This document shows positions 2,587 through 50,424 of a DNA stretch of 64,000 nucleotides, piece after piece. The notes beneath the pieces are model-generated. The model was not told the DNA's origin, made no database searches, and saw nothing but the letters and a program-made list of their open reading frames with translations. The DNA lies in NCBI RefSeq assembly GCF_006345805.1, contig NC_042997.1:160456001-160520000 (forward strand), written 5' to 3'. Position numbers and translations under genes: made by a program. The DNA comes from Octopus sinensis. Taxonomy: Eukaryota. Each line of letters begins with the position of its first letter. Positions within the stretch are counted from its first letter, which is position 1.

Positions 2587-2990
2587 CTTTACTCTTTACT
2601 CTTTACATGTTTCAGTCATTTGACTGCGGCCATGCTGAAGCACCGCCTTTAGTCGAGCAATTCGACCCCGGGACTTATTCTTTATAAGCCCAGTACTTAT
2701 TCTATCGGTCTCTTTTGTCGAACCGCTAAGTGACGGGGACGTAAACACACCAACATCGGTTGTCAAGCAATGCTAGGGGTACAAACACAGACACACAAAC
2801 ACATACACATACATATACATATATATACATATATACGACAGGCTTCTTTCAGTTTCCGTCTACCAAATCCACTTACAAGGCATTGGTCGGCCCGGGGCTA
2901 TAGCAGAAGACACTTGCCCAAGATGCCACGCAGTGGGATTTAACCCGGAACCATGTGGTTGGTTAGCAAGCTACTTACCACACAGCCACT

Positions 2991-3901: not shown

Positions 3902-4284
3902 TCTTTTACTTGTTTCAGTCATTTGACTGTGGCCATGCTGGAGCACCGCCTGTAGTCGAGCAAATCGACCCCAGGAGTTATTCTTTGTAAGCCTAGTACT
4001 TAATCTATCGGCCTCTTTCGCCGGAACCGCCAGGTTACGGGGACGTAAACACACCACCATCGGTTGTCAAGTGATGGTGGGGGGACAAACACAGACACAC
4101 AAACATATACATACACATACATACATATATACATATATACGACGAGCTTCTTTCAGTTTCTGTCTAGCAAATCCACTTACAAGGCTTTGGTCGGCCCGAG
4201 GCTATAGTAGAACACATTTGTCCAAGGTGCCATGTGGGGCCATGTGGTTGGTAAGCAAGCTACTTACCACACAGCCACTGCTAC
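3901..4284 (-). mobile_element. tRNA-derived SINE, second copy
   Basis: Collinear with 2587-2993, with a small deletion in the head. Flanked by (TA)n. Confidence 0.85.
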
Positions 4285-5826: not shown

Positions 5827-8800
5827 TAGTTTTATTTTTATAGCGTGCTTTCACTTCACTACCGAGCGCAGCTCTGTGTGGCTTAGGTATGTGCTGTGAT
5901 TTGTTGTGATGCTCTGATGGTTATTGTATGGAAAGTGTTCTGCGTAGGATGTGTGCAGTGCCTAGTAGTGCAATTTTCTGTATGTTATATGTGTTTGTAA
6001 GTCCTGGTGTTTTTGTTATGTATTCGTCTGAATATTTTTTATTATGCCTAATGCACCTACTATGATAGGAATTGTTTCTGTTTTTAGATTCCACATTCTG
6101 GTTACCTCTATTTCCAGGTCTTTGTATTTTGAAAGTTTCTCCATTTCTTTTAGAGAACGTTGTCATCTGCCGGTATTGATACATCAATTAGAAAGCATTT
6201 TTTTCTTCATGATCTCTGACAACTATATCTGGTCTGTTGGCCTTAATTTCTCTATCTGTGTGCATCGGCATATCCCAGAGTATGGTTGCTTTCTCGTTTT
6301 CTGTGACCTTTTCTGGTGTGTGCCTATACCATCTTTTTTCTGTTGTTATTCTATAATGTTGGCATAGCTTCCAGAGTATGTAGGTTCCAACTCTGTCATG
6401 TCTGTGAACATATTCCTTCTTAGCCAGGACTGGGCAGCCAGAGATAATATGATTTATTGTTTCTTGTCCATCTCCACATATTCTGCAGTTACTTGTGAGA
6501 TTTCTTTTCATTACATGCTTTTGGTAATTTCTGGTGGGGAGGATTTGGTCTTGTGCTGCAATAAAAATCCCTCTGTCTCTGCTTTGAGTCCTGAGCTTCT
6601 CAACCATTGCTGGGATTTTTCTTTGTCAATTTCTTTTGCGTTTAGTTTAGTCCAGTATTTACCATGAAGTGGCTTTTCTTGCCATCGTTTTATCATGGTT
6701 CGTTGCTGTTCTATTTTTAGTTTGGATTTCATTTGTTTTATAGCTTTTGTTGTTTCTTCTTCGTCTTCTTCTTCTTCTCTTCTTCTTCTTCTTCTTCTTC
6801 TTTTCTTCTTCTTCTTCTTCTTCTTCTTCTTCTTCTTCTTCTCTTCTTCTTCTTCTTCTTCTTCTCTTCTTCTCTTCTTCTTCTTCTCTTCTTCTTCTTC
6901 TTCTTCTTCTTCTTCTTCATATTTATTAGGTGGTATGATTTCTTGTTTGTGTTTATCAGCTTCCTTAAATACGGAGAACAGTTTTTTTGTTTTGCTCGTG
7001 TTTTGCTGCTATTTGTATCAGTTTTCCCTCCTTCTGAAGTAGATATTTTTGCAGTCTTATGGTGGTTATTTTATAGTAGTTTTCCAGCTGTATAAGGCCT
7101 CTACCACCTTCTATACGTTGTATATATAGTCTTTCTATGTCAGATTTTGGGTGATGCATCCTAGATCCTGTCGTTATTTTTCTTGTTTTCCTATCTTTCT
7201 TGGTCAGTTCATTTAGTGTCCAGTTAAGGATATTGTTGCTGTAACTTATAACTGAGACAGCTAAAGTGTTAATACCTATTATCTTGTTTTTAGCATTGAG
7301 CTCTGTTTTTAGTATTGATCTAACTCGTCTATAATATTCTTTTTTTATTTTCTCTTTCAATTGTGTGTGTTGTGTCTTACCTAGTTCATGGATTCCTAAG
7401 TATTTGTAAGTTTGGCTTTGGTGTAGTTCTTTTATTTTCATTGGTGTGATGTTGCTACTCTTAACTAGTTTTCCCCTTTGCAGGGTTACTTTGGCGCATT
7501 TTTCTAATCCAAATTTCATATCTATTTCTTTGGTAAATCCATGAACTGTCTTTAATAGTGTTTTCAGCTGTTTGTCATTTGCAGCGTATAGTTTTAGGTC
7601 ATCCATATATAAAATGTGACTGGTCGTTTTGCCGTAACATTTATATCCGCATCCAGTTCTATTTAGCATATCAGATAGAGGTGACAGTGCCAAGCAGAAA
7701 AGGAGTGGAGAGAGCGTGTCTCCCTGGAATATTCCTCTTCTAATGGGGATGACTTTGGTTTTCATGAGTCCCTCTTTTGTTTGGATCTGTAGCACTGTTT
7801 GCCATTTTTTCATAGAGTGCCCTATGAATTTTATAATTGTTGGTGCTACTTTGTTAATGGCTAGTGTTTCGAGGATCCATGTGTGGGGGATGCTATCAAA
7901 CGCCTTTTTGTAGTCGATCCAGGCCATACTGAGGCCTTTCTTCTTTCTGTGGCTGTCTTCAGTTATGGCTTTATTAATCATTAGTTGATCTTTACAGCCA
8001 TATGAGCCTTTGCGGCATCCTTTCTGCTCTTCTGGAAACAGGCTGTTTTCGTCCGGATGCTTGTTCAACCTTTGCGATATCACTGCAGTAAATGCCTTGT
8101 ACATTGTGGGGAGACAGGTTATTGGTCTGTAGTTATTTGGTTTTGCTGTCTCATTTGATTTGGGAATTAAGATGGTTTTCCCCTTCGTGAGCCATTCAGG
8201 CATTGTCTCTGGCTCTACTAGTATGTTGTTAAAGTTTTCAGCCAGCTTTTAGTGCATTCCTGTTAGATATTTCAACCAAAAGTTGGGGATCTTGTCATGC
8301 CCAGGTGCCTTCCAGTTGCTTAGTCATTGCAGTGCCTGGGTGACCTCTTCAGTTGTTATGGGGGGTCCAAAGTTGTTCAGATGCTGAGTTTGTTGTTTTA
8401 ATACTCCTTTGTTTTGGTTGTTCGTTCGTTGACCATATTTCTCTCCAGAATTCTTCCACTTCTTCTGCCGTTGGTGCTGCAGTGATTTCTATTTTATTTT
8501 TGCCAAGTTCTTGGTAGAACTTTTTGGGGTTGGATTTGAACTTTTTGTTTTGTTCAAAGAAGCGCTGGCGTTTCTCGTACCGGCGGATCCTTTGTGCTTT
8601 GGCAAGGATATCTTGCTTCAGCGTTTCTTATATCTCAGGTAAATCTTTTTCTGTGATGTTATATTTGCGGAGTATTTTTGTTTTCTTTTTGTTGCTCAGT
8701 AGCGTTGATTGTCCACTGATTTCATTAAGAATCGACAGATCTTTTCTCATTTTTTGTGTTTTGTTTTGGATGTTATTTATCCACATGGTTTGTTTGGGTG

Positions 8801-9905
8801 GTGGTACTCCTGTTTGGATGGGTTTGAGTGAGTATCCAGCTTCTTTTGTGGCTGCAGTGGCTGCTGCGTATACTAAGTCATTTAGCTCAGTGATATCGCT
8901 TTTTGTTTCAGTGGCTATTAATTCCGTGACGGCTAGGTTTATGCTGTTTATAATTGGTGTTGTTGTTTCGTCTATTTTGATTTTTGGGAGGTATGGTCGT
9001 TGGTCCATTTTGAGCTCTGTGGTTTTCAGTTCTTTGATTATTTTACTTTTTATATTATCATAATCATTAGGCTCCCCTTCGTTGTTTCCAGGTTTTAGAT
9101 TTGTGTCGCTTTCTTTCTTATTTATGTTTGTTTGTCGTGTTTTGGCTTGCTGTTTGTCGTGTATTATTATGCATCCTTACAGTCTGGGTTTGTTTTTTGT
9201 TTACATCGTTTTTGTTGGGAATGTTACGTTTGTCTTCGTGTTTTACTGTTTCAGTGTTTTTATTATTGGGTATTGCTGTGTGGCTTCTATCTACAAATTT
9301 CCTGGCGTATTTTTTCTTTTAGATGTTCTATTTCTATTTCTGATATTTTCTTTTGCGTTGAGAATATACCTTCGTACGTTAGCTAGTTTATTAGGGTTCA
9401 TTGATGTATCCAAGTCTATATTTATGTTATTTTACTTCCATATTTTATATGCATGTGTGTTGTGTTTTCATTTTTGGGGTAGTAGAGCACTGCTGTGAAG
9501 TATGCGTTGGATAGAAATGTATTCTTCACGTGTCCATTTATGTCTTTTGGGTTTTATTTGCGGGACATGAGGAACAACGTCCGGCCCATTATTTTGACGG
9601 TCGTCATTTTCGTAGGGTACCGGTCCGTTCATTTCTGTTGTCACATTGTTTTGCACGTGTAGTTTTTCGTACATTTTGTGTTGTAAGTTTAAAGTACGTA
9701 CTTCCCGATTGCTATTCTTGGGTTGAATAATATCGGTGATATTTAATTTCTTCGTAGTTTTTTTGTACGTGGTGTTTGGGGTCGGGGATAATCTGGTGTT
9801 GATGGATCGTAATGTATCACGCATGTTTACACGTGTTGTGTTAGAGGTGGAGATGATATCGAGTTAAAATACATCATTTCGTTTCGAAAACAGTAATAAA
9901 TTTCA
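5824..9905 (-). mobile_element. R4/Dong-type RLE non-LTR retrotransposon, family A, near full length, disrupted
   Basis: N-terminal KRHKWTREEY. RT motifs YRPITCLP, WIDYKKAFDS, GIFQGDTLSP and YMDD. CCHC knuckle CRIC..ETINHIISGC, RHD, and RLE RPDIVV..D..K. (TAA)n on both flanks. Confidence 0.92.
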
Positions 9906-9933
9906 ATGGGTATTAATATTATTATTATTGTTA

Positions 9934-9984
<51 letters not shown>

Positions 9985-9992
9985 TATTATTA

Positions 9993-10027
<35 letters not shown>

Positions 10028-10028
<1 letters not shown>

Positions 10029-13000
10029 TTTTTTTTCTTCTTTCAAATTTTCTTCCATTTCTTGCCGAGTGTCTTCCCGACTCCTAGGGCAAAGAAACTC
10101 ATAGTGTATATTGGTAGGCCATTAAACCAAACTCAGTAGTTCGTTAATTTTTTTTTTTTTTTTTTTTTAAAGTTAAATTAAAATACATGAGCAGCAACAG
10201 TTCTCACATCGACAATGCTCTTCTCAATACGTGTGATGTACCAGTTAAGACAATCTTTTGCACTTCTTGCAGGGATGGTAAGCCAGGGATCATTCTCATA
10301 TAATTTTCGGTTCCTTTCTTGATCATTCCTAGTGCTCCTACGATCACTGGTATTGTAACCGCCTTGAGATGCCACATTTTCTCAATTTCAATGAGTAGGT
10401 CTTTATATTTTCTGAGCTTGTCAAACTCTTTCGCTGAGATATTATGATCACAGGGGATGCTCATGTCGATCAATAAGCAAACTTTATTGTTTTGGTCTTT
10501 CACAACAATATCTGGTTTATTGGCCTTGATGGTTCGGTCTGTATGTACTGGAAAGTCCCACAGAATGGTTACATTTTCTCCTTCAGTTACAGCCTCAGGG
10601 TGGTGATTATACCACTTGTCGGCAGTTTTGATATTGTAATGCCGACTTATTAGCCAGTGGAGATATTGGCCAACTCTGTCATGTCTTAATTTATACTCCA
10701 CTGGTGCTAAGACTTTACATCCAGAGATTAGGTGGTCCACTGTTTCAATCATGTCGTTGCAGAATCGGCATTTTGGGTCTGCTCCATTTTTCATCACATT
10801 GGCCTGGTAGTTCCGGGTTAATAGGCTTTGGTCTTGAGCAGCCAGGATGAAACCTTCGCTCTCTGCTTTTAGCCCTGAGCTCCGCAGCCACTGATGGGTT
10901 TGCTTCTGGTCAACATCAGCTTGTAAGTAATGCCACTTGCTAACCATTCAGGTGTTTTCTTTGGGTCTCTCAAAATTCCATTGAGCAGTTGAACTAGCTT
11001 ACCGTGTGCGCACGGGAGCGATGCGAGCCAGAAATTCGGTACCCTATCTTTACCGGGGGATTTCCAATTATGGGCCTTCGTGAGTGCCTTTCTTAGGTCT
11101 GCTATTGTGATGTCTTCCCATGCTTGTTGTTGTAAATTTTGGTAGGATCCTTCAGTTTGTATAATCCAGTCTGCATTTATGTTGTACGTCTTCTTGTCAC
11201 TCCAAATTCTTTCCCAAAAGTTTTGAACTTCTTCCATGGGAGGGGGGTCTTTAACGGTTACTTTCTCCTTCCTTATTTCTCTGTAGAATTTTTTGGCATT
11301 GGATGTGAACAGCTTATTTTGCTTGTAAAACTTGTTTCTCTTCTCAAATCTCCGTATTCTTTGGGCTTTTGCTTGGACTTTTTGTTTCAGCGTTTCTTTT
11401 ATTGATATCAGTTCTTCTCTTGGTGAGGATCCAAATTTTCTCTTCATCTTTCTTCCTGTTCTGGATCTTACATCATTTCCACATATTAGTTCATTTAATA
11501 TTGATATTTCCCCTCTCATAAATTCAATCTCTTTTTCAATTTTACTTCTCCAGGTTTGATTTCTTCCCAGGTTTTGTTTTCTTTGTTTTTTCGGGGGCAT
11601 ACAGCTGGTTTCAATTGCCCTAGCAGAAGCGTAAATAATTTCATTTAACTCAGTAAAATCAGGTTTTAATTCTCGTATTATTTCATTTGTTACATAGTTG
11701 CCAATTTGGTTTGTTTTTTATTTTGGTTTGTATTTGAGAGTTTATGAAGCGGTTCTCTATCATTCATACTTGTATGTCTTACAACTTCAAGCGTATTCAG
11801 GATTTTCTGCCTCATTTCTGCCATAGACTCTCTGTGTTCTTCAGCAAATGCGAGATCTTCAGTTACTGTTGTTTTTTCGTGTTCCTGGCTATCTTTAACA
11901 GGTACAATAGAATTTCTTGTATCTTCAGACCTTTGCGTACTTTGGTCAGATGGCAGTCTTTCAATTAAGCCTCGTGGCGGGCTATACTGTTCATCTGATT
12001 CTTCATTTCCTTTGTTTCTTATATTTATGTCATTTTCCGTTGCGTGCTTGATCGCACTTATTTCACTGTCTGTGAGTCTGTTATTTCTAAAGATATCCCT
12101 CCTCACATTTGCTAATTTGTTCTCGTCCAAATAGGGCCTACTGTCTTGATTCCGTGTTCTCCATATACTGTAAGAGTTTGCGGTGTGTCTCTCTTGAGAT
12201 GGCCTACCTAATGCATAGTAATAAGCGTATATTACTTCTTTATACTCTTCTCGGGTCCATTTGTTCCGCTTACATTTTTCTTTCTGTGGTGGTTGTGGTG
12301 GTGAACTTGGAGGGCTCGAGTTGGGGGATTTCCCATTCAAGTGACCATCCATGTCCGTATTCGGAGAAGAGTTTGTGCCAGTTGATGACTTTTCGATCCC
12401 AGGCTGGCTCTTCCCTGGGGGACGCGCTTCCAGATTAACCATAGGACAAGCGATTTGGTATACTGATTTAGTTTTCCTTTTAGTTTCCAAAAACATTTTG
12501 GTGCTACGATAATGTTATCATTTTTTAGCTTTGATTGGCTCGTGGGGAGACGGCCATCATTGCCGTTACAATTATAATCGTACCATTATAGCAGCCGTAG
12601 TCGGCTTATTATTGTTATTATCTTCACCATTACCATCACTATCATCATTATCACCACCATTACCATCATCATCATCATCATCACCATCACCACCATCATT
12701 ATCAATGATATTGTTTTATGTGTAGTCACAGCAGTATCTTATTGTTATTTTTGTTTTTTTATCATTATCACCATCACAGTAGTGTCTGTCTGTCTCGTTG
12801 GCTGGCTGACTGTCTTCAATGCCAGAGTTCTTGCCTGTCAAATAATACTTTCATATTTGGCTAACAATAGAGCCGAGGTGAGGTTTATGTGTGTGTGTGT
12901 AGATAGATAGATAGAATATCAGCACTATTACTATCTTTTTTTTGGGTGGGGTCAAAAAAAAAAGTTCAGATGTTTACTACTTTTAGCCTTAAGAAACATT

Positions 13001-13700
13001 AAGGAAGGGGTGTCCTGTATTGTTTGTGAATAGAGAAGTTGTGTTCGACCAGAGAGAATCTTAGCATCATCATTTTTTTTCCATGTGCGTTTGTGTTATT
13101 GCAATTAAAAGTGTTTGTATATTTCGTGTAAGGTAATATTGTGGAGGTTGAAGTTGACTTTTCTAGAGATGTTTGTATGTCCAGTTAGAAGAACAGGTGT
13201 GTTTTTGCAATAAAAAGTATATGTTTACATTTATATTTGAATATTCAGGGAGGAAGCAAAGAAAAGTCAGATTTTCATAGAAAGTTTTAGGGTTTTGAAA
13301 GTCCACAAAAAGAAAAGCGTGATGTTTTTAGAGAGAAGAAAAAAAAAAAAGGATGTTTACAGAGGCAATTGTGGGTATCAAAGTTTTTAAAGCTGGTCGA
13401 ATGTATGATTGAAAACTGTGGATATGTAAATTTGTAAATTTTCTTAACTTATTTTGAAGGGCTGTTCTCTATTATTTGTGAATAGAGAAGCTGTGTTCGA
13501 CCAGAGAGAATCTTAGCATCATTATTTTTTCCATGTGCGTTTGTGTTATTGCAATAAAAAGTGTTTGTATATTTCGTGCAAGGTAATATTGTGGAGGTTG
13601 AAGTTGACCCCTCTAGAGATGTTTGTATGTCCAATTAGAAGAACAGGTGTGTTTTTGCAATAAAAAGTATATGTTTACATTTATATTTGAATATTTACAT
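10028..13700 (-). mobile_element. R4/Dong-type RLE LINE, family B, copy 1 (RT deleted; long putative 5'UTR)
   Basis: ORFs 11690-12496, 10869-11600 and 10204-10947 (CRFC..HLISGC, RHD, KPDIVV). The RT core is missing at junction 10922/10923. The 5' limit is inferred from the next (TAA)n tract. Confidence 0.85.
13018..13695. repeat. ~225-bp direct repeat (13018-13245 and ~13471-13695)
   Basis: Near-identical blocks tttgtgaatagagaag...atgtttacatttatatttgaatatt. Confidence 0.85.
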
Positions 13701-13703
13701 TTA

Positions 13704-13778
<75 letters not shown>

Positions 13779-13828
13779 CATTATTATTATTATTATTATT
13801 ATTATTGTTATTATTATTATTATTATTA

Positions 13829-16800
13829 CTTTTTTTTTTTCTTTCAAATTTTCTTCCATTTCTGCCGAGTGTCTTCCCGACTCCTAGGGCAAAGAAACTC
13901 ATAGTGTATATTGGTAGGCCATTAAACCAAACTCAGTAGTTCGTTAATTTTTTTAATTTTTTTTTTTTTAAAGTTAAATTAAAATACATGAGCAGCACAG
14001 TTCTCACATCGACAATGCTCTTCTCAATACGTGTGATGTACCAGTTAAGACAATCTTTTGCACTTCTTGCAGGGATGGTAAGCAGGGATCATTCTCATAT
14101 AATTTTCGGTTCCTTTCTTGATCATTCCTAGTACTCCTACGATCACTGGTATTGTAACCGCCTTGAGATGCCACATTTTCTCAATTTCAATGAGTAGGTC
14201 TTTATATTTTCTGAGCTTGTCAAACTCTTTCGCTGAGATATTATGATCACAGGGGATGCTCATGTCGATCAATAAGCAAACTTTATTGTTTTGGTCTTTC
14301 ACAACAATATCTGGTTTATTGGCCTTGATGGTTCGGTCTGTATGTACTGGAAAGTCCCACAGAATGGTTACATTTTCTCCTTCAGTTACAGCCTCAGGGT
14401 GGTGATTATACCACTTGTCGGCAGTTTTGATATTGTAATGCCGACTTATTAGCCAGTGGAAATATTGGCCAACTCTGTCATGTCTTAATTTATACTCCAC
14501 TGGTGCTAAGACTTTACATCCAGAGATTAGGTGGTCCACTGTTTCAATCATGTCGTTGCAGAATCGGCATTTGGGTCTGCTCCATTTTTCATCACATTGG
14601 CCTGGTAGTTCCGGGTTAATAGGCTTTGGTCTTGAGCAGCCAGGATGAAATCTTCGCTCTCTGCTTTTAGCCCTGAGCTCCGCAGCCACTGATGGGTTTG
14701 CTTCTGGTCAACATCAGCTTGTTTGCTGCGGGTCACATATTTGCCGTGCAGAGGTTTCTCCTCCCACCTATCAGCCAATTGCTCGTGCGCTTTTTTCATT
14801 GCCATCATTTTCACCTTCTTTGCAACAATAGTTGCCGTACTTCCCTCGGGTTGTTCAGTTTGGGTATCCTGCACGAGATCAATAGCAAAGTTTTTGCTTT
14901 CCTTGATGATAGAATGAAGCTTCTTTCGTCTCTCGTGATTTTCCACGAGCTTTAGCATCCAGTCATTCGATTTTCGAGATATTTGGCCAGTCCAATTGTG
15001 GTTGTTTTGTAAGCTAGTTCAAATTGGATCAGGCCTCGACCTCCTTGGGCTCTGGGAAGGTAAAGGCGATCTACGTCTGCCTTTGGGTGGTGCATCCTAT
15101 TACAACTCAGCAGCATGCGTATTTTTCTATCTATATTCTTTACTTCACTCATATTCCAGTTCAACACATTGTAGCTATAAGTAACAACTGGAACTGCTAA
15201 GGAATTTATAGCTAACACCTTGTTACGTGCATTTAGTTCAGATTTCAGGACTGCACGAACTCTCCTATAACATTCCTTCCTGATTTTCTTTTCATGCTTC
15301 ATGCTGAATACCAGAGCCTTCATTTATCCCTAAATATTTGTATGTCTGTTCTTGCTCAAGCTCTCTTATGACTGTGTCAACATCTAACACGACTGAATTT
15401 GTGGTTTTCACTTTCCCTTCTGGAAAGTGGCCTTGGCACACTTCTCAAGTCCAAACTCCATCCCGATGTCATCGCTGAATGCTTTCACGGTGCGCAATAG
15501 GCCTTCAAGTTCATTATTGTCTTTACCATAAAGTTTAAGTCATCCATATAAAATAGATGGCTTATTTTTTTATTGGCAATTTTAAACCCATACCCTGTTC
15601 TGTTTAATTCACTTGTAAGGGGTATTAGGGCTATGCAGAATATTAAAGGTGAAAGTGAGTCACCTTGAAAAATTCCACAGTTGATGTTTATATTTTCTGA
15701 GGCATGTACTCCATTAGAGTGGTATAATTGGAGATTCGTATTCCACAACGACATATTGTGCTTCAGGAAGTTTGAAATCACAGGGGAAATTTTAAAGATG
15801 TCCAGCGATCTCAAGATCCATGGATGCGGTATACTGTCGAAGGCCTTTTTATAGTCAATCCATGCGGTGCTGAGATTTCTGCGCTTGTTGTGACAGTTCT
15901 CAAGGATCATACGATTGATTAGCAGTTGATCTTTGCATCCGTAAGAGCCTCGGCGGCACCCTTTTTGTTCAATGGGGAAAATATCGTTCTTCTCCATGAA
16001 TGCATATGTTTTCTCCGCCAGGATAGATGTTAGGATTTTATACGTGGTGGATAGACAGGTTATAGGCCGATAGTTTTTTGGAAGGTTGGTTTCGTTATTC
16101 TTTGGGTAGTAGGTAAGTAATGCCACTTGCTAACCATTCAGGTGTTTTCTTTGGGTCTCTCAAAATTCCATTGAGCAGCTGAACTAGCTTACCGTGTGCG
16201 CACGGGAGCGATGCGAGCCAGAAATTCGGTACCCTATCTTTACCGGGGGATTTCCAATTATGGGCCTTCGTGAGTGCCTTTCTTAGGTCTGCTATGTGAT
16301 GTCTTCCCATGCTGTGTTGTAAATTTTGGTAGGATCCTTCAGTTTGTATAATCCAGTCTGCATTTATGTTGTACGTCTTCTTGTCACTCCAAATTCTTCC
16401 CAAAAGTTTTGAACTTCTTCCATGGGAGGGGGGTCTTTAACGGTTACTTTCTCCTTCCTTATTCTCTGTAGAATTTTTTGGCATTGGATGTGAACAGCTT
16501 ATTTTGCTTGTAAAACTTGTTTCTCTTCTCAAATCTCCGTATTCTTTGGGCTTTTGCTTGGACTTTTTGTTTCAGCGTTTCTTTTATTGATATCAGTTCT
16601 TCTCTTGGTGAGGATCCAAATTTTCTCTTCATCTTTCTTCCTGTTCTGGATCTTACATCATTTCCACATATTAGTTCATTTAATATTGATATTTCCCCTC
16701 TCATAAATTCAATCTCTTTTTCAATTTTACTTCTCCAGGTTTGATTTCTTCCCAGGTTTTGTTTTCTTTGTTTTTTCGGGGGCATACAGCTGGTTTCAAT

Positions 16801-17522
16801 TGCCCTAGCAGAAGCGTAAATAATTTCATTTAACTCAGTAAAATCAGGTTTTTAATTCTCGTATTATTTCATTTGTTACATAGTTGCCAATTTGGATTTG
16901 TTTTTTATTTTGGTTTGTATTTGAGAGTTTATGAAGCGGTTCTCTATCATTCATACTTGTATGTCTTACAACTTCAAGCATATTCAGGATTTTCTGCCTC
17001 ATTTCTGCCATAGACTCTCTGTGTCTTCAGCAAATGCGAGATCTTCAGTTACTGTTGGTTTTTTCGTTTTCCTGGCTATCTTTAACAGGTACAATAGAAT
17101 TTCTTGTATCTTCAGACCTTTGCGTACTTTGGTCAGATGGCAGATTTCAATTAGCCTCGTGGCGGGCTATACTGTTCATCTGATTCTTCATTTCTGTGTG
17201 TCTTATATTTATGTCATTTTCCGTTGCGTGCTTGATCGCACTTATTTCACTGTCTGTGAGTCTGTTATTTCTAAAGATATCCCTCCTCACATTTGCTAAT
17301 TTGTTCTCGTCCAAATAGGGCCTACTGTCTTGATTCCGTGTTCTCCATATACTGTAAGAGTTTGCGGTGTGTCTCTCTTGAGATGGCCTACCTAATGCAT
17401 AGTAATAAGCGTATATTACTTCTTTATACTCTTCTCGGGTCCATTTGTTCCGCTTACATTTTTCTTTCTGTGGTGGTTGTGGTGGTGAACTTGGAGGGCT
17501 CGAGTTGGGGGATTTCCCGTTC

Positions 17523-17527
<5 letters not shown>
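13829..17527 (-). mobile_element. R4/Dong-type RLE LINE, family B, copy 2 (5'-truncated)
   Basis: Nearly identical to copy 1 but keeps the RT (YRPITCLS, GIFQGDSLSP, YMDD). Several frameshifts. (TAA)n on both sides. Confidence 0.92.
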
Positions 17528-17595
<68 letters not shown>

Positions 17596-18085
17596 GAGTG
17601 AGAGCGCAGTGCATGTCATGAAAATGACACTGGGATAAAATATACGAAGCCCAGTATACCCATCATAATTACCCGTCTGATAAGGGCAAACTAGGCACAT
17701 GCATCACAAACATATGTGCGCGACATGGTGATCTCATATCAAGATAAACAGCACATGACATGGTAGGTGGGGCCCATTTAGAATTTTCTTCTGATCGAGA
17801 AACCCATCCCGCTCAAAAGGTCCCTGAATAAGGGCTGTTTAAGAATGTTGAACGAAGCACCCATGTTTCCAAAGGTGAATTATTCAAACCCCAAAGACTC
17901 CCTCTCAACACATGGCTATGATGCTTCTCACTGCTTCCGCTCGTGATCAGAGATGCACATATCGTTAGCCTCCAAGGGACATGCTCAACTGGTTAAGGTC
18001 ATAAAATTGACTATCACATCTGTGGCATTGAGCAGAATATTTGTTGTAGCCCAACTTGAAACCATGAGTGCCACTCTCAGGTACA
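17596..18085. mobile_element. ~490-bp non-coding insertion in (TAA)n, probably a LINE 3'UTR or non-autonomous partner
   Basis: Complex sequence bounded sharply by (TTA)n on both sides. No recognisable coding motif. Confidence 0.5.
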
Positions 18086-18192
<107 letters not shown>

Positions 18193-18231
18193 CTATTACT
18201 ATTACTACTATTATTATTATTATTATTATTA

Positions 18232-18263
<32 letters not shown>

Positions 18264-18279
18264 CATCATCATCATCATA

Positions 18280-19400
18280 TATACACACAGAAGATATTAG
18301 CCTGTTTTAAAAGAAAAAAATCCTAACATCGAGCTACAAGTGACCTTAGATGTCAAGAACACTCCTAGTATCCTAGCTGTCCCTAATAACACTGTTTTCT
18401 GAAGCTGTACTAAACTGGCTTTTATGCCTGTTTCCTCTATCCATCTGTTCAGATCTACAGGGATAGTTCCCAATGCACCTATAACTAATGGAATACGTTT
18501 TACCTGCACTTTCCGTAGTTTCTGTAATTCTATGGATAGGAACTTGTACTTTGCTAATTTTTCTATATCTCTTACATTGAATTTTTCCTCAATTGGGACT
18601 GTGAAATCAATTATCTGGCACATTATATTCTCTTTATCTACCACTACTAAATCAAGCCTTCTAGCTTCTATTACTCTGTCAGATTGAATGTTAAATCCCC
18701 ACAACATCTTGTATTCCTTACTTTCTATTACTTTACTAGATTCATATTCATACTATATTTTAGTATGTTCAAATTCTAGCTTTCAACATAACTCCGAGTT
18801 GATTACTATACCTAGTTGTCACGTCTTTTCTTGTATTCTTTCTATGCCAGCATCCTACTTTCATTTACTATATCAGTAATGCTTTCCTCGTTTGATTTGC
18901 ATAAACTATACTGGGAATCTACTTGGATTTTTCTATCTTGGCTTTTATCCAATTAGTCCTTAGTACATGATTTTGTGCAGCTACTAACAAACTTTATGTC
19001 TCCCTTTTCAGCTTTTATTTCTGCAACCATAATCACGTCTTACTACTACTATTTGCTGCAACTATCTTTGGGAATCTATAATGCAACGCCTTCTCGTGCC
19101 AGTCAGATACTCCCTGTTTATTTTTCTCGTTTTTAAATTCGCTTGGGCTTTTGGATACCTTATGTGTTGCTGTGGTTGTAGCACTTTTCATAAATTTTCT
19201 TCACTATTATCTACATAGGAGTCCATACCTGCTCTAGCTATCTCCACGTAGTCTTCTACTGATATTAACTCTCTCATGCCTCTCTTTCTAGATAAGTATA
19301 ATCTTGCTACTCCTGCCCTTAGGTGGGGTCCTCTATTCAAATTCTTCTAGTTCTTTTGTTTAGCTGTGGTCATTCTGCATCTTTACTGATCCACTGCCGA
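18280..19400 (-). mobile_element. Older RLE LINE fragment (family C)
   Basis: ORF 18297-18707: WGFNIQSDRVIEARRLDLVVVDK..IIDFTVP..EKLAKYK..PLVIGALG..QKTVLLGTARIL (RLE domain). Confidence 0.85.
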
Positions 19401-22334: not shown

Positions 22335-23035
22335 TTATATTATCATTTATTTTCAATGCATTACAAAGGAGAATCTGTTGCCCGTTAAAATTATGTTCTA
22401 CGTATTATACCTAAAAGTTTGAATGGATATTGAAAGAAAGGAAATATTTTGTGATATATCTTATTCGTTTACATTGTTTGAGATTTTAACAAATTTAATT
22501 TCAGTTTAATCAACGTTTAAATATTCAGGAATATCATTTAGACTAGGCCCTTTTCAATATTAAAAGGCGGCAACTTTATTACTTCGAATTTGGTATTTGT
22601 CCTACCTTCTAAGAGACACGTTAGTGACAATGTGAATATATTATCAACGAATAAATTTTGATTTTGGCTTTAATCAATACGCTGATTCTTATTGTAGAAC
22701 TCTAGAGTCGATTAAATTGCTCAACGATCTCATGAGTCATTCTGTGTAATTCCAATAAGATGAAAGTCTATATCCGTTTGTTTTAAATTTATATGTAAAC
22801 AGAGGTAATAAATAATTTACCTGCTATAATGGTTAGATAGCACCCTTCATTTGCCAATAATTTACTCCTTATTTTTTTGTATGTATATATTCACTATTTA
22901 CCGAGTATATTGACACAAACCTTTCAACAGTGTATTCACTATTTTACATCAAGCCATCAATAACTGGTGTACATATACATATACACGCATACACATACAT
23001 ACATATATATATTACACAACACTACCCCACTGAAT

Positions 23036-24308
23036 ATGGCCAATAATTTTCAAAAACGCCGCTGGGTTGAAAATGAAATTACTGCAATGATTAACGCTTG
23101 GTTCATCCATCACAACGAAGCTAATGTTTACAGTAAAATAACTGAGGATTTGACGAAAAAATCCTTTCACAGATCTGTAAAACAGATAGAAAAAAAATTA
23201 AAAGAAATTGTTAGGATATTCCCTATTTTTCACGCGCACATGGCTACACTAAAAGCCATTCTTGCCAACGAATCCAGTACCACAAATGACCAAATTCCAA
23301 CAGGTCAGGGGTCACTTCAACAGCAACAATCAACTGACCTACTTCCATTGTCAACAGCACCTGATGAACCAAGTCAAGTTTCACCTTCGCTACAGCAACA
23401 AAAACAACAACAACAACAACAACAACACTAATACTACCACTAGTCAAGTTCCAATGCTGCTACAACAAAAACAACTCTCCACTACTGCCACAATAGGAAA
23501 ATCACTACTACATCCGCGTAAAACTATCTGCCATTACTACTCTCAAGGCAGCTGCAGATTTGACCACATTCTGGCAAGCCAGAACCCACCATCACAAAAT
23601 CAACAAGCTGCTTCTAACACCACTGCTACTACTGCCAAAATAGAAAAACCACTACTACAACCAAATAGAACCCCCTGGCGTTACTATTCTAAAGGCCATT
23701 GTAGATTTGGCCCCAGCGGCACAAACAAAAATGGACGCTGTGCTTTTCCCCATCCGACCTTATGTCGTAGACTTGCTATGGGCACCTGTCCATACGGTAT
23801 AACAGGAAGAAATTGCCCCCACCTCCACCCCAAATACTGTCCTAAATACAGAATCTATGGTTCTGATCCTAAATACGGATGCATAAGAGGCAATGGATGC
23901 ACCTTATTCCATCCTAAACTGTGCCAAACTTCTGTCTCACAAAGGATGTGCCTGAACCCAGAATGCAACTACCACCATCTGAAGGGCACAAAACGATCAC
24001 AGAATAGATATAAACAGGAACAGAGGAAATCTAGGACAACAACAAGAACAAAATACAACCACGTTTCCCCTCCTGCAATCAAACAACGTAGACAGAACCA
24101 TGAAAAAACACCAAATAACGCCAACTTGAAATATGTATCTTGTGACCAAGTGGCAAACCAAACAAGTAACTCTTTTTTACTGACATACCTGGAAAATATG
24201 AAGGCCGACCTAAGCCAGGAGATCCAGCGAGCCATCACCAACCATCTATGCAAATCACAAGGACCACTCACCCATTACCAACTTCCCTTACCTCGACATT
24301 CCTGTTAA
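23036..24308 (+). pseudogene. LINE ORF1: Myb/SANT-like domain, Q-rich linker and tandem CCCH zinc fingers (one frameshift near 23425)
   Basis: RRWVENEITAMINAW...VYSKITEDL...HRSVKQIEKKLKEI, then fingers C-x7-C-x8-C-x3-H, C-x13-C-x5-C-x3-H and C-x8-C-x4-C-x3-H, plus two degenerate ones. Confidence 0.7.
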
Positions 24309-27164
24309 ATATACGTGGCATCAACCCATCAATTATTGCCCAAAAATGGAAGATCCCATATATAGAGAGTTGGATTGCCGAAATGGCACATTGCTTCCCT
24401 TTCTTTATCCTTACCGAGACTCACCTGAACAACACCCATATGGACGCAGGGGTGAAAATAAAAGATTTCACCATTGTTCGTGCGGATCGCACAGACCGAA
24501 ATAAGGGAGGGACAGCCATCTTTATCCATGACTCCTTTTCACTTGATGCCAAGGACACATTTTCCAATGGCTACTGTGAATCGGTATCACTATACAACAA
24601 AGCCAAGGACATAACCATTGTTGGTCTTTACAGGCCTCCCCAGGCACCTCTAAAGTACTTAGAAGAGTGCCTTAGCAAAGTCAAGTCCTTCCTTCGGAAG
24701 TACCACTCCGGAAACATACTAGTGATGGGTGATTTTAACCTCCCTCATGTGAACTGGCCCACAAATACTCCGAAGTTAGGCAAGTGCTCTACATCAGATA
24801 GGGCAGCAGCAGAACTGCTCTTTAATCTGATGGATGAGTATTTCCTGACTCTGCTAGTGCTTGAACCAACGAGACAGAATAAAACGATCTTGGATCTGGT
24901 ATTGACCAATCACTCTAGCTACGTTCACAGTATTTCAGTCGAAAAAACTCTCCTCTCAGACCACGACATGGTACTCTGCAATCTTAATTCTCGACATATA
25001 AAAACCAAACCAGCCACTCCCACTCCATGGCACCCATTTGACAACATAAACTTCCACAAAGCGGACTGGGGAACAATCAGAAAGGATCTGTCTTCCATCG
25101 ACTGGTCTTTTACTCTCAATTCCCCTCATATTGAGACCGCGTGGCAGCACTTTGAAAACATTGTCACCTATACATGCTCTAAACACGCTCCCAAGAAATC
25201 TACTAACACAAACAGAAACCGGCTCCCTAAAAAGAAAAAAACACTCATCAGGCGCATCAAAAGACTCAACAAAAATTCAACCAATTAAAATATTCCCACA
25301 CACAACATCCACATTCAACAACAATGAAAAGACTAGAGCTGGAAAAACTTCATCTGCAGACTAACATGAAAACCTCCATTGAAAATCAAAGAGCTGTGGA
25401 GGAACAATGGGTAATCAAAAACATCAAACAGAACCCAAAAGTGTTCTATTCTTATGCAAATAAGCATAGAAGCACTGTCTCACCCATTGGGCCATTGATT
25501 GATGATAACGGCATTCCCCAACACGATGCTAAAGAAATGGCAGAAATACTGCAGAAACAATACTGCTCTGTCTTCAGTGTTCCCACGTGAGGGAAACGAA
25601 CGAAGTTGACTCCCAACACAAAATCGCAGACATAACCTTCACTGCCACCGACATCGTAGCAGCAATAAATGAGGTCAAACATTACTCTGCTGTAGGCCCT
25701 GATAGATTTCCCGCTAGTCTCCTGAAGGAATGTAGATATCAACTTGCAGTCCCTCTGACCAACCTCTGGAGAAACTCGTTAGACGCAGGTTATATACCGA
25801 AACAGTTTCTATCCCAGTCGGTCATCCCGGTTTTCAAACAGGGAAACAGATCCCTCGCAGTCAACTATCGCCCAATCTCACTCACCTCCCACATCATTAA
25901 AGTGTTCGAAAGAGTGTTAAGATCAAGGATAGCTGACTTCCTGGAGACCCACAAACTCCTAAATTCAAATCAGCATGGCTTTCGCTCTGGCAGGGACTGT
26001 CTAACACAGCTCTTACACCACATTGAAGATGTACTCAAAGCCTTGGGAACAGGTTCGAACTCTGACGTCATATATCTTGATTTCAGCAAAGCGTTCGACA
26101 GGGTAGACCATAACATACTACTCTCGAAATTGGCAAATGTTGGAATCCGTGGAAAAGTTCTACACTGGATACAGTATTTCCTGGCGAATAGAACACAACA
26201 TGTTGTAGTTGATGGAGTCCACTCAAACCCAGCAAAAGTCACCAGCGGTGTTCCCCAGGGAACTGTTTTGGGTCAGCTACTCTTCATAATTTACGTAAAC
26301 GACCTTTCCAGTGTCGTACATCACTGCAAAGTGAAAATATTCGCTGATGACACTAAGCTCCATCAAATCGTCAATGAAGAAGCAGACCGAACTCAACTCC
26401 AGTCTGATCTATATGCTGTGAGTCAATGGGTAGACAGAAGCAAAATGCAACTGAATGAGGGAAAATTTGAGCTGATGCATTTTGGAAGAAATTCCTCACT
26501 AAAACAACCATACTCTCTTCCTTCAGGGGAACCGCTCACAGCCTCTAACAATATCAGAGACCTGCGTGTAATTGTTGATGACGATCTCAGTTGGAGTGCA
26601 CACATCAACAAGAAGGTCGATATAGCTCGTAGGATGAGTTCCTTGATCTTAAGAACTTTCCGGTCCAGAGAACAAGGTGTCATCATACCACATTTTTCCT
26701 CCTTTGTACGGCCACACCTTGAATACTGCTGCCCACTGTGGTCTCCTCACACAAGACAAAACATCTCCAGAATTGAGTCACCCCAGAGGGCTCTCACTAA
26801 ACAAATTGAAGGCATGGCTGCTCTCGATTATTGGGATCGCCTTAAAGCCTTGAAACTTTACTCCCTCCAGCGTCGCCGTGAGCGGTACATCATTTGTACG
26901 ATGTGGAAAATATACCGCCAACTTTACCCAAACGACCTAAACATTAGCTTCAAGGTTCATCCAAGACTTGGACCACGGGCTATACGTCCCCTGCCAAATT
27001 CAAGATCACAACATACATGTACACTGCAACATAATTTCTTTTCCTCAATAGGCCCTGCCCTATTTAACATTGTCCCGAGGGAGATCAAAGAGGAAAAGGA
27101 TCCCATCAACTTTAAACAGAGTCTGATAGATTCCTTCAAAGAATACCAGATAAGCCACCCATAA
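24248..27164 (+). pseudogene. LINE ORF2: AP endonuclease and reverse transcriptase (frameshifts near 25280 and 25590)
   Basis: APE motifs LNIRG, LTETHL, YRPP, MGDFN, LDLVL and SDH. RT motifs YRPISLTS, QHGFR, YLDFSKAFD, GVPQG and FADD. Confidence 0.92.
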
Positions 27165-27165
27165 T

Positions 27166-27251
27166 TGGATACAACTCACCCAACAAGAACTCACTACTTG
27201 AACAAAACTGGATACAACTCACCCAACAAGAACTCACTACTTGAACAAAAC
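27166..27251 (+). repeat. 43-bp tandem duplication at the LINE 3' end
   Basis: tggatacaactcacccaacaagaactcactacttgaacaaaac occurs twice. Confidence 0.9.
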
Positions 27252-28424
27252 TTGACTTAAACAGGATTCGAATAATCCTATCAGGTGGTGCTATTAAGTT
27301 AGACATAGCCTGGACCAATCTCTGGTCGAAACATATCTAAGTTTTATCTAAGTTTTATATATATATATATATATATATATTCATATTTATATATATATGA
27401 AAAACATGAAGACATAGAAGACGTTGAAATATTTCTTTACTTTTCCTGAATTTTTCTTGCCACTAGGATCGAGGAATGGATTTCAGTATCTAGTTTACTG
27501 GTGCAAATAACAAGAAATCAATTTAAGTTAACTTATGCGATAGGATAAGATTCATTGACGAGCTCGTAATTATTTCTAAGTTAGACCCCCATTCCTGTAA
27601 TTTGAAGCGGATAGCCTGTAGTTGATTACATTGAATACGGAGGAATACAAGGTAAAGTTGACCTCGGAGTGATATAAGTTCAAATTGTAAAAAGCCAGAA
27701 AATATACTCCGAATCATTTCCAAAGCTGTAACATATCTATCAATGAAACACATTTGTAGTGGAAGTCATATTAAGACGTGAATATGTGTGAAGTTCCTTC
27801 TCGTAGTGACCGTGAAATTAACAAATACTATTCCACTATATTATTATTTATAGTCTACTTTATGATGTTCCCTAACTCTTCTAGTAACAGTAAATGTCAT
27901 AGCTCAGTATTTTAAGAAACTATTGAAAGAGAAACAAAGAATAACTAGAGATGCAATTATAACAGTAAATGCTCGTTGTTGTTGTTGTTTTATAACATTG
28001 CAATTTCACAGTATTAACATCCATACTTATAATTCACATAAATCATATAATTGGGAAATAGCATGAGCACCTGAATTTCCCATTCTCTGGTCCTTCAGTA
28101 TGTGATCGTGCACTTTAAGTTTGACAATACAATGCAACTCCAGACATCTGTGTTGTTTGACTGGCTAGAAATAGCAGTTAAATCACTTTTACATCACACC
28201 AACCGCCACAAGAAATGTACGTCACATAGGGCCACGTCTACATAGTGATGTACAAAAAGAAACGTCGTGGAGATACCTGCAATATTAAGTCATCTCATTG
28301 TCTAGGACAACTCCAAGGCTAGACAACTGTTGCTGCTGCAGCACCTCATCCACTTCCACTTCATCCCCTCCAGCACCTCCCCCCTCCTCCTCCTCCTCCT
28401 AATACTACTACTACTACCACCACC

Positions 28425-37979: not shown

Positions 37980-39969
37980 TTTTTGCTAGAATGGAACTGA
38001 TATATCAATTCAATCCAGACTCTTACAAACGCTACACCTTTAAAAAAAATGGACTTGTTTGATTGGCTCTTTAGAAATAACGGTCAATCTTCGAGCGATA
38101 AACAAAGAAATGAGCTCAAAAATATATGTATATATATATAAAAAAATTATAAAAATTATAAAAATTATAAAATTCGAGGAAAAAACCTTACATTGAATAA
38201 AATACATATTGACGTTAATGAAGGAAATATAATTAATGCATGGAAATTAAAAGCATTATAAATATTACACTGCAATACATATTCATATTAAAGTGTACAT
38301 ATATATATCAACATACACAGAAGGATGCGTGCAAACGCCATACATATACAGACGTATAAATATAAATCTAAAATATACACACAAATGCATGCATACATAT
38401 ATGTACGCAATCTGTCTCGCACGCAAGTTAAAATCATCGATGCTAATGTAGCGTTTCTTATTTACGGAGTAAAGCTTAAGTAAGGGGGACGCAAAGTTGT
38501 ATGTACCAGTATCAGTTAGAGAAAAAAAACGAAAGAAAAGAAGAGAGAGAAAAAGGAACGAAGAAGGGGGAAGGAAAAAAGAAAAAGGAGGGGTGGGGTA
38601 AAAACGAAATAAGAAAAATTAAGTATACAAGCTGTGTAACCGCGTTATTGACATATATAGAGACAAGTATAAAAATACACAAGTTCGAATGGATACATAC
38701 ACATACACTCGCGTATGTGTGTGCTTAAGCACAAACATACGCTCACTTACACAGACACAGAGACGTATGCTTACAAATACATATCCATGGCTATACACAT
38801 ATTTACATCAAAATTCTAAGTTTTGACAACATTGCTTTTTAAAAAAGGTGAGTGCAATAATGAAAAATATACGAAAGACATATAAAAATATAACACCCTA
38901 TGTTGGATCATCTATAAATTAAAAATCAAGGTAATCCTATACAATACAATAACATGAAATAATCAAAGCCGAAGGTTTTTCCTAATGTATATGTAGAAAT
39001 ATAAACAAAATAAACAAAATATATGCATGAGACTTTGCTATACGGAATGAAATCTGCATAGCGCGTAACAAATCCATCGTCGCGTTTACATACTAGTCCA
39101 AGAGTCAAAATCAATATTTCAAAAATCAAAAATACAAAATATATACTCTATCTATATGGTATATTTATATTTGACATTTTAAATTTGGTTGCGTGCCTAC
39201 ATAAGTTCATTAGCTCACTTCTTTGATTCAAAGAATTATTGTCTTTGAATAAAATATACAGTTTCTCTAATAGGCAAAGCTTGCATTAAAAATTATTTCT
39301 GTGTGCTCCATGCCTGTATGGTGCCGCTCTATCCAGAATGCTCCATGTCACGTTGAAAGGTGGGGTTTCCTTTCCTTTTAGTTCCCAGACATATTTTGCT
39401 AGGCTGGTCCTCTTCCTATTCTCTGGGTATCTAAATGAATTTTTATGTGAATAAAATCGTGTTTTAAATGAATTTTCTGAAGCCCCTGTATATGTCTTGT
39501 ATTCCGATGAGCCTTCTATTTGCACCTTGGCTCTATAAACTACTCCTTTAACTAGACATTTCCCTTCTAACGGACACGAGTTTTCGTTTTTGAAATTGCA
39601 TTTCTTAATGGGCTCGGCACCATGTCTAATCTCAATCAGATTCCTAGTATGCTGGCTAATGTAAGAGGCGAAATTTCTGCAACAAGAATAGCTAACCTTC
39701 AGGGTTCTTCTATTAAATATCCTATAGAATTTATGGCCCTGCTTAAAATGCTTAGAGACTAATCTCAAAAATGCCTTACCTATATTAGTCTTTACGGCCA
39801 AATTGAAAGCCCATTCGTTTTTTTCTCTAACTGATACTGGTACATACAACTTTACGTCCCCCTTACTTAAGCTTTACTCCGTAAATAAGAAACGCCACAT
39901 TAGCATCGATGATTTTAACTTGCGTGCGAGATAGATTGCGTACATATATCGGTTCCATTTTAGCAAAAA

Positions 39970-40313: not shown

Positions 40314-40844
40314 CTATAAAACAATACTGGGAGGATAGAGACGGAACGAAGTGAAAATTCGAAAAGTCGAAAATTCGAACGAACCCGACGCGAGCGCTGT
40401 CAGACAATAGTGTAATAAATAAAATATATGCATACATACAAACATATATGTACGTACCGACATCTACATGTATATATACATGCATATATAAATATATATA
40501 CGTACAGGACACCACAAAAAGACGTAAACTCAACAGAAACGATAACGGAAAAGCCGTTTTGTTACAACAGACGGACGAGAACGAAAACAGGAAAAACATT
40601 AAGTACAACAGAAAAACGAGGTACAGGAGATGCTACACAAGGAAAAATCCCCTTCATCAGCTGTCACTAGCAGACATAGCGTGTTTCGAAGGCAAGACAG
40701 GACACGTCTGGTCATGCTAGGCCTTCCTACGAGAGAATTAAAATAAAATAATCTCGCAGAGGGGTAAAACAAGCAAGAAAAAATGTAACACAAAAAGGGA
40801 CGTAACAAAGAACTGCACAATAAAATACAAGAACAAAATACCAG

Positions 40845-43800: not shown

Positions 43801-44500
43801 CCAAAACATGTAATGAAAAGAAATATAACAAGTAACTGCAGAATATGTGGAGATGGACAAGAAACAATAAATCATATTATCTCTGGCTGCCCAGTCCTGG
43901 CTAAGAAGGAATATGTTCACAGACATGACAGAGTTGGAACCTACATACACTGGAAGCTATGCCAACATTATAGAATAACAACAGAAAAAAGATGGTATAG
44001 GCACACACCAGAAAAGGTCACAGAAAACGAGAAAGCAGCCATACTCTGCGATATGCCGATACACACAGATAGAGAAATTAAGGCCAACATACCAGATATA
44101 GTTGTCAAAGATCATGAAGAAAAAAATGCTTTCTAATTGATGTATCAATACCGGCTGATGACAACGTGTCTCTAAAAGAAATGGAGAAACTCTCAAAATA
44201 CAAAGACCTGGAAATAGAGGTAGCCAGAATGTGAAATCTAAAGACAGAAACAATTCCTATCATAGTAGGTGCATTAGGCATGATAAAAAAATATTCAGAC
44301 AAATACATAACAAAACACCAGGACTTACAAACACATATAACATACAGAAAATTGCACTACTAGGCACTGCACACATCCTACGCAGAACACTTTCCATACA
44401 ATAACCATCAGAGCATCACAACAAATCACAGCACATACCCAAGGCACACAGAGCGCGCTCGGTAGTAAAGTGATAGCACGCTATAAAAATAAAACTACTG
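40845..44500 (+). mobile_element. R4/Dong-type RLE LINE, family A, copy 2
   Basis: 624-aa ORF at 40900-42774 (N-terminus to RT), frameshifted RT remainder, and 43591-44136 with the CCHC/RLE region. Ends at (TAA)n. Confidence 0.92.
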
Positions 44501-50400: not shown

Positions 50401-50424
50401 CCAGGACATTTTTACCCCTTGTTG

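Follow-up and report, generated by a model that had tools for sequence, protein, structure and literature searches.

CCCH zinc fingers and a Myb/SANT-like domain in a single ORF1 of octopus LINEs

The 64,000-nucleotide stretch of Octopus sinensis DNA analyzed here, called the window in the following, contains a copy of a LINE whose ORF1, in intact sister copies, joins a Myb/SANT-like domain of the trihelix type to an array of CCCH zinc fingers. This Myb-CCCH ORF1 type is apparently undescribed. The more general result is a wider LINE lineage with a CCCH-based ORF1 and an exchangeable N-terminal module, which adds a widespread type to the ORF1 classification. The function of ORF1 beyond RNA binding and the purpose of the PHD in LINEs are open questions. 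A single lineage in which the same predicted RNA-binding core is combined with either a PHD-like module or a Myb domain, and with one to four fingers, forms a natural swap series in which the part played by the N-terminal module can be tested directly.

The element in the window and its sister copies

The features of the window copy are listed in Table 1. The LINE extends from about position 22888 to 27358, with a short tandem tail at its end that leads into (TA)n. Sister copies have a 5′UTR of about 570–590 nt, and the window copy is 5′-truncated at about 22888. The stop codon of ORF1 (24306–24308) and the first ATG of ORF2 (24248) define an overlap of 61 nt, close to the 60 nt estimated in a sequence-only reading of this DNA. 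According to tblastn with sister ORF2s, the ORF2 of the window copy is disrupted near 25270, 25587 and 27140. Because of its 5′ truncation, the frameshift in ORF1 and these three breaks in ORF2, the window copy is a dead member of a multicopy APE-RT LINE. The LINE nature is evident from APE and RT domains in an ORF2 behind an overlapping ORF1 and from dispersed copies with 5′ truncation and a 3′ tandem tail, without LTRs. TA tracts at the insertion sites mask target-site duplications. Near the end of ORF2 (27166–27252), a perfect 43-nt tandem duplication is present.

Table 1. Features of the LINE copy in the window.
Feature	Position	Strand	Basis or remark
5′UTR remnant, 3′ part	22888..23035	+	sister-copy BLAST begins at 22888; short TA run precedes
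ORF1	23036..24308	+	422–424 aa in intact sisters; window copy frameshifted near 23428
Myb/SANT-like (trihelix-type) domain with lineage-specific helix 3 extension	23057..23251	+	Pfam, three-helix model, invariant residues
CAA (poly-Q) tract, then 2-nt shortfall and premature TAA	23392..23431	+	
Partial finger C-x7-C-x3-H, recently duplicated from the beginning of finger 1	23529..23567	+	absent from older copy L340
CCCH finger 1, Trp in place of first Cys (window copy)	23676..23753	+	
CCCH fingers 2–4, core common to relatives outside octopods	23763..23978	+	ligand conservation, model, Foldseek
C-terminal amphipathic helix with heptads (SFL...), predicted to form a short coiled coil	24171..24236	+	periodicity, 40 aligned ORF1s
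ORF2, APE endonuclease and reverse transcriptase	24248..27254	+	Pfam Exo_endo_phos_2, RVT_1; tblastn with sister ORF2s
3′UTR; predicted pair of adjoining hairpins, the first with a bulged stem, the second with a 5-bp stem	27281..27333	+	MFE folds
Tandem tail TATCTAAGTTT x2.3, continuing into (TA)n tract	27334..27398	+	

The window also contains several RT elements that have one ORF, end in a restriction-like endonuclease and are flanked by (TAA)n tracts (6500–18800, minus strand; 40789–44136 and 56128–56601, plus strand); we take them to be Dong/R4-like. The N-terminal piece of one of them gave 4,268 candidates in the source genome (G000). A frame at 39286–39873 (minus strand) looks to us like part of a Penelope-like element, namely its GIY-YIG end; a Pfam search with this frame gave no match. 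An RTE-type RT (L377, L072:6800–7501) carries a Cys/His-rich PHD-like insert directly after the RT core.

A DNA search of G000 for the Myb-CCCH element yielded 402 candidates, 40 of which were scored and 30 loci fetched. All 40 scored candidates match the element, which excludes a chance resemblance. The ATG is present in 26 loci; in three of them (L004, L005, L006) a single frame starting there reads across Myb and all fingers and closes at the normal stop, and in two further ones it stays open to the end of the fingers. That Myb domain and fingers belong to one ORF, which the sequence-only reading had proposed to check, is thereby confirmed by natural sisters with a single ORF1 of 422–424 aa. 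The places given in that reading are right for the start codon at 23036, the Myb-like N-terminal part, the Q-rich linker, the duplicated module and the three intact CCCH fingers with their HP-x-x-C linkers. Two details had to be corrected in addition to the 5′ truncation given above. The frameshift assigned to the CAA tract is real, but it is a 2-nt shortfall just 3′ of the tract (about 23428) and the length of the tract is not its cause; 25 of the 30 fetched loci have two extra bases at this site. The duplicated module is also present, but its two parts are 49 codons apart, the second being the beginning of a fourth complete finger (finger 1 in Table 1) and the first a partial finger.

Loci L001–L004 have the same flanks as the window copy and represent one insertion, with an open ORF1 in L004. 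The small G000 contigs C10053, C10831, C9719 and C9907 repeat the window insertion with identical flanks and are haplotigs or segmental duplicates; C9719 bears the version with the open ORF1. In a look at expression, contigs from four runs span the ORF, none of them bridging the frameshift site, and they speak neither for nor against expression.

The Myb domain

Three Myb lineages are present in G000, namely A (four fingers), D/E (two fingers) and B/C (one finger). In D and E the Myb domain is combined with two copies of the last finger, in B/C with the first finger only. Each lineage has APE-RT behind ORF1, and intact single ORF1s were found in A, B/C, D and E. A complete ORF2 is present in 1/20 of the fetched stretches of B/C, 2/9 of D, 1/10 of E and 0/20 of A, and four copies (L173, L195, L198, L207) have both ORFs intact.

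With the Pfam profile Myb_DNA-bind_4 (PF13837, curated cut-off 27 bits), the domain of the window copy scored 25.2 bits and thus below the cut-off, whereas the trimmed sister domain reached 28.7 bits and older copies up to 42.9 bits, so that the Myb assignment made from the sequence alone holds at the profile level. The profile matched seven of ten aligned members. A family search of G000 gave 37 matches over the cut-off, 31 of them on family A copies, 25 of which were fetched and confirmed as family A by sequence. W10, E14, W22, K54, H68 and L72 are invariant, and the basic residues R46 and K54 of helix 3 are invariant or nearly so. Structure prediction gave three helices, with a pLDDT of 82 for the best model and 54–62 for the other four, i.e., one confident model of five. 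In a fold search the best E-value was 1.2; GT-1 (TM 0.47–0.48, Z 5.5) was tied with SANT domains and with unrelated folds. The best PDB sequence match is weak (E 0.08) and concerns the N-terminal region of an R2 protein. The LINE Mybs of all families have an extension of helix 3 that is absent from the non-LINE matches.

The dN/dS ratio of the Myb domain is 0.25 (A young versus old) and 0.15 (C versus B), compared to 0.80 and 0.66, respectively, for the linker; these values come from single-copy pairs of natural copies and include later neutral changes, and the synonymous sites of D versus E are saturated. The Myb domain is under purifying selection. An origin of the Myb-like segment as a passenger or artefact of one broken copy had some appeal in view of the frameshift between Myb and fingers in the window copy and its score below the Pfam cut-off. 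It is refuted by the intact natural ORFs of A, B/C, D and E and by the purifying selection, and with homologues in proteins of Octopus vulgaris and O. bimaculoides on the same side it is hardly credible.

According to Pfam, the domain matches the trihelix DNA-binding family and not the SANT families. Trihelix Myb domains bind DNA. The fold could nevertheless have been kept for contacts with protein or RNA, in assembly, nuclear import or as a silencing decoy, and not for DNA binding. SANT-type domains frequently bind proteins, and those of DNAJC2 and ISWI are among the fold neighbours. Scores against Myb_DNA-bind_4 are lower for the young family than for old copies, and helices 1 and 2 are joined by a shorter loop than that of host proteins. 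On the other hand, R46 and K54 are retained basic residues of a kind typical of a recognition helix, and together with the match to a DNA-binding family they make such a role improbable.

In a profile search of longer proteins with 7,992 scored candidates, only four matches for the LINE Myb were obtained, all of B-type and all from Octopus (O. vulgaris and O. bimaculoides); given this number of candidates, the lack of matches outside Octopus carries little weight. Atlas neighbours of the domain score under 0.9 and serve as leads only. The O. bimaculoides gene model P0276 (LOC106870161) begins with a B-type LINE Myb domain and continues as a host coiled-coil protein with DUF4600 (PF15372), which is either an exon capture or an annotation artefact. 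Two sets of candidates for a Myb donor were rejected: two Dong-like elements of the window have N-termini without a profile match (probability 0.6%), and the five non-LINE Myb_DNA-bind_4 matches in G000 show 10–29% identity, none of them being a clear donor.

The CCCH finger array and the C-terminal helix

The intact ORF1 of family A contains a partial duplicate besides its four complete CCCH fingers. Finger 1 has the pattern C-x7-C-x12-C-x3-H, with Trp for the first Cys in the window copy and in the loci with the same flanks. The following three-finger core (spacings C-x7-C-x8, C-x13-C-x5 and C-x8-C-x4, each with a C-x3-H ligand end) matched 1,629 protein clusters at E ≤ 0.001 and 527 at 1e-10. 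Three C-x3-H motifs are present in 131 of the 151 clusters examined, and each of the 12 ligand positions is either invariant or conserved to 90% or more across 70 sequences.

All finger matches to the Pfam family zf-CCCH stay under the cut-off. The model of the finger core has a pLDDT of 85, and in a Foldseek search with this model 15/15 rows were CCCH RNA-binding proteins, at weak E-values of 0.9–7 (best 0.93). The structural neighbours are CPSF30, MBNL1, ZAP and TIS11d; CPSF30 was also the sole match in VIA (Z 3.0, rmsd 3.7, 45 aligned residues). CCCH arrays bind RNA. The heptad helix at the C-terminus is present in families A, B/C, D and E as well as in external CCCH ORF1s. As judged from its distribution among protein sequences, the CCCH array is not particular to the Myb element and is an old, widespread part of the lineage.

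Relatives with other N-terminal modules

The external finger proteins are LINE ORF1s, since in metagenome contigs the finger ORF precedes APE-RT. Among 80 metagenome loci fetched by RT, five have a finger ORF ahead of APE-RT; three of these are complete and begin with a helical and PHD-like part, and two are cut at the 5′ end. From the 151 external finger proteins, the 109 longer ones were scanned against Pfam, and none of them contained a Myb domain. By our own count, 30/109 matched a PHD family at E ≤ 0.01, four of them over the cut-off. Profiles of the helical and PHD-like parts were then used on the 94 proteins whose fingers are preceded by 150 aa or more: the PHD-like profile matched 82 and the helical profile 74, both profiles having been built from 40 of the proteins scanned, and the Myb profile matched none. 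The N-terminal part of the PHD-like profile matches solved PHD fingers (KAT6A, E 5e-5).

These unnamed LINEs (P0006–P0154; L236, L237, L240) share the finger core, the heptad helix and the RT branch with the octopod Myb families and, where examined, also the 3′ end with two hairpins described below. They differ in their N-terminus, which is helical and PHD-like instead of Myb, and their fingers are nearly fixed at three, compared to one, two or four in the octopod families. In terms of sequence comparison, the Myb domain is likely to have replaced the helical and PHD-like module, a replacement known to date from octopods alone. With one query, no PHD-type member of the lineage was found in G000; such a Myb-less member would be the proper control for the TA counts below.

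The N-terminus of CCCH ORF1s carries other additions, too, such as an OTU-like domain (P0148), a doubled helical and PHD module (L236) and, by eye, chromo/Tudor-like starts (P0128, P0135). P0014 and P0114 have hydrophobic leaders ending with an NPGP motif, which is presumably 2A-like.

Distribution of the Myb domain over RT lineages

In RT trees, a single long branch (SH-aLRT 100) comprises all finger-bearing elements. It lies next to, but apart from, a group containing a bird CR1-like RT (P0238), and it is also separate from elements with esterase or, by eye, PHD and L1-like ORF1s. These trees are quick ones without bootstrap, with a single named bird protein as CR1 reference and without L2, Jockey or I references; the label "CR1-type" is reasonable but provisional on this sequence basis. 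ORF1 is known for a minority of the RT neighbours, and L238 and L242, which carry the label PHD_CCCH in the trees, are cut before the N-terminus.

Within the finger branch, A, D and E group with an RT of Argonauta hians, the nearest named RT, and B/C is placed elsewhere. A single clade of Myb-bearing RTs was rejected (p-AU 1.2e-6, 34 rows). The RT of D is 69% identical to that of A versus 43–45% to that of B/C, whereas the Myb domains are equally divergent, with 26–33% identity for A versus B/C and 26–35% for A versus D/E. In the Myb tree, the LINE Mybs form one clade with support of 72/30, and neither grouping was rejected. B and C are about 95% identical in ORF2 and 75–85% at the 5′ end, and their 5′UTRs are different. 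Since the Myb RTs are not one clade, the Myb divergence is equal, and the 5′ ends of B/C diverge far more than ORF2, the simplest reading is that one Myb capture was likely followed by 5′ exchange between RT lineages. Alternatively, an old Myb domain with losses or two captures may account for the pattern. In the window, an old B/C-like ORF2 fragment with 38–54% identity is located at 49400–50420 (minus strand).

The joint divergence of 5′UTR and Myb domain between B and C, with the remainder about 95% alike, would also be expected if Myb acted on its own 5′UTR promoter by auto-activation or repression and moved with the 5′UTR as one 5′ cassette. The 5′UTRs contain internal tandem repeats, and Myb_DNA-bind_4 proteins resemble transcription factors. 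However, 5′ replacement is frequent in LINEs irrespective of ORF1 function, and the PHD-like module that was replaced is no promoter reader, so we regard a promoter role as distinctly unlikely.

TA repeats and the 3′ end

Insertion flanks were tabulated, as the sequence-only reading had suggested, with TA adjacency defined as (TA)4 within 45 nt of the 3′ end and four same-flank duplicates dropped for A. TA adjacency was found in 32/46 copies of A, 15/20 of B/C and 5/8 of D, in total 52/74 for the Myb families, and by eye likewise in family E; the background is 4–8%. The corresponding numbers are 12/30 for an RTE-type LINE and 16/43 for a SINE. The Myb families exceed the RTE control (Fisher p = 0.007), of which 16 fetched copies are mostly 5′-truncated and without Myb profile match, and which is called Myb-less on the strength of the single-ORF layout of RTE elements. 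Every tail examined ends in an AT-rich repeat. Since elements without Myb are enriched as well, TA adjacency in this genome does not require the Myb domain, which may or may not raise it. The earlier proposal that Myb guides insertion to TA repeats is not supported in the form given: the adjacency is real, but RTE and SINE copies are also far above the background.

If the Myb domain did read (TA)n DNA and steer insertion there, like the N-terminal Myb of R2-type proteins, the preference of all counted Myb families relative to RTE and SINE and the common target of three Myb types with only 18–35% identity would find an explanation. The best PDB sequence match is in line with this, at an E-value of only 0.08, and the excess over the RTE control leaves room for a contribution. 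We nevertheless consider such steering unlikely, as the RTE and SINE copies lie 5–10 times above the background, all tails end in AT-rich repeats able to prime on TA, and 14 of the 46 family A ends lack (TA)4. Moreover, TA tracts may expand after insertion, and in APE elements the target is usually set by the endonuclease.

MFE folds of 10 tails, which were hand-picked with starts chosen by eye, predict a pair of 3′ hairpins with compensating changes. In the predicted folds of L235, L236, L239, L242, L244 and the window copy, a bulged hairpin is directly followed by a hairpin of 4–7 bp; the sequences differ and the pairing is kept. A strict descriptor scan missed most cases, with two matches in 16, one of them off target. 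The folds suggest that the two-hairpin 3′ end appears to be common to the whole CCCH-ORF1 branch and is a candidate RNA recognition signal.

Over its last 45 nt, an abundant short repeat (3909–3950 and 2609–2650, minus strand; L164:5880–5945) is 79–84% identical to the 3′ end of B/C, and both predicted hairpins are common to the two. From this sequence match, B/C is likely the partner LINE of the abundant octopus SINE, for which a likely driver can thus be named. Tails of CR1 elements shared with SINEs are described for bivalves in PMC4758252.

Proposed mechanism

The mechanism that we prefer, with a confidence only a little above even, assigns the RNA to the fingers, assembly to the helix and the contact with the genome to an exchangeable N-terminal slot. 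The CCCH fingers would bind and package the element RNA, and the heptad helix would oligomerize the ORF1 protein. The Myb domain, connected to the four fingers by a presumably disordered linker, would tether the particle to DNA or chromatin from the slot that the helical and PHD-like module occupies in relatives. As is established, ORF2p nicks the target and primes; the (TA)n preference would stem mainly from ORF2p and from microhomology between tail and target, with Myb at most raising it. On the long RT branch, the CCCH array, the helix and the two-hairpin 3′ end would make up the old core. The octopod elements probably captured a Myb_DNA-bind_4-type domain once, which was then probably passed between two distant RT lineages via 5′ recombination.

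A bolder version, which we hold to be rather unlikely, sees here a large, little-studied LINE lineage with a sixth kind of ORF1, composed of an RNA-binding CCCH array and a plug-in genome-reading module. Octopods would have swapped the PHD for a captured Myb, passed it between RT lineages, and their elements would home to (TA)n via ORF1p rather than via the endonuclease.

Comparison with known systems

The sequence-only reading had pointed to a possible undescribed system. What remains of this is the apparently undescribed ORF1 type; it is a variant of a LINE ORF1 and no new system. Its statement that the architecture is unfamiliar agrees with the main text of the ORF1 survey PMC4120745 and with the literature searched, where no such type was found. 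The survey extends the scheme of Khazina and Weichenrieder (Metcalfe and Casane, 2014) to five ORF1 types, none of which has CCCH or Myb according to its main text, in which the words CCCH, myb, SANT and trihelix have 0 occurrences. As given there, it covers 448 elements with no cephalopod listed, and the PHD of LINEs was without functional study at that time. Full-text searches, which do not extend to Repbase Reports, Dfam and most subscription papers, listed no publication in which a LINE ORF1 has CCCH fingers or a Myb domain. By RT tree, Martelossi et al. (2023; PMC10294476) assign octopus LINE clusters of high copy number to CR1; their classification is by RT only and ORF1 is mentioned once. 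The Myb-CCCH families are probably among these clusters; a motif search in 13 of the 33 supplement files gave no match. The passages of PMC9115989 consulted deal with RTE and Dong only, and CR1 is absent from them.

The CR1/L2-lineage elements with ORF1 types I–V, as presented in the main text of PMC4120745, are likewise two-ORF APE-RT LINEs with a modular ORF1, an exchangeable N-terminal PHD and a reticulate ORF1 history between RT lineages. The difference lies in the RNA-binding part, which is RRM/CCHC, L1-like or esterase in these types and a CCCH array in the octopus element, with Myb in the N-terminal slot. Apart from low-complexity linkers, the intact octopus ORF1 consists of Myb, fingers and a single short helix. 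It has no C-x2-C-x4-H-x4-C knuckle and no RRM match in Pfam (type I), and no Pfam match to the coiled coil-RRM-CTD arrangement of type II (Transposase_22). Pfam found no PHD (type III) in families A–E and no match to the SGNH esterase of type IV, for which the control loci L277 and L269 match Lipase_GDSL_2.

R2 and R4 (Dong) likewise have a Myb-type domain inside a non-LTR retrotransposon. There it sits in the single RT/RLE protein, whereas in the octopus element it is part of ORF1. With the Myb protein of Harbinger/PIF elements, GT-1 and MSANTD, the octopus domain has in common the Pfam match over the cut-off and the three-helix model, GT-1 being among the top structural rows, level with unrelated folds. 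In Harbinger/PIF, however, Myb is paired with a DDE transposase inside TIRs, while the octopus Myb is joined to CCCH fingers, has APE-RT as its neighbour and lies between LINE ends.
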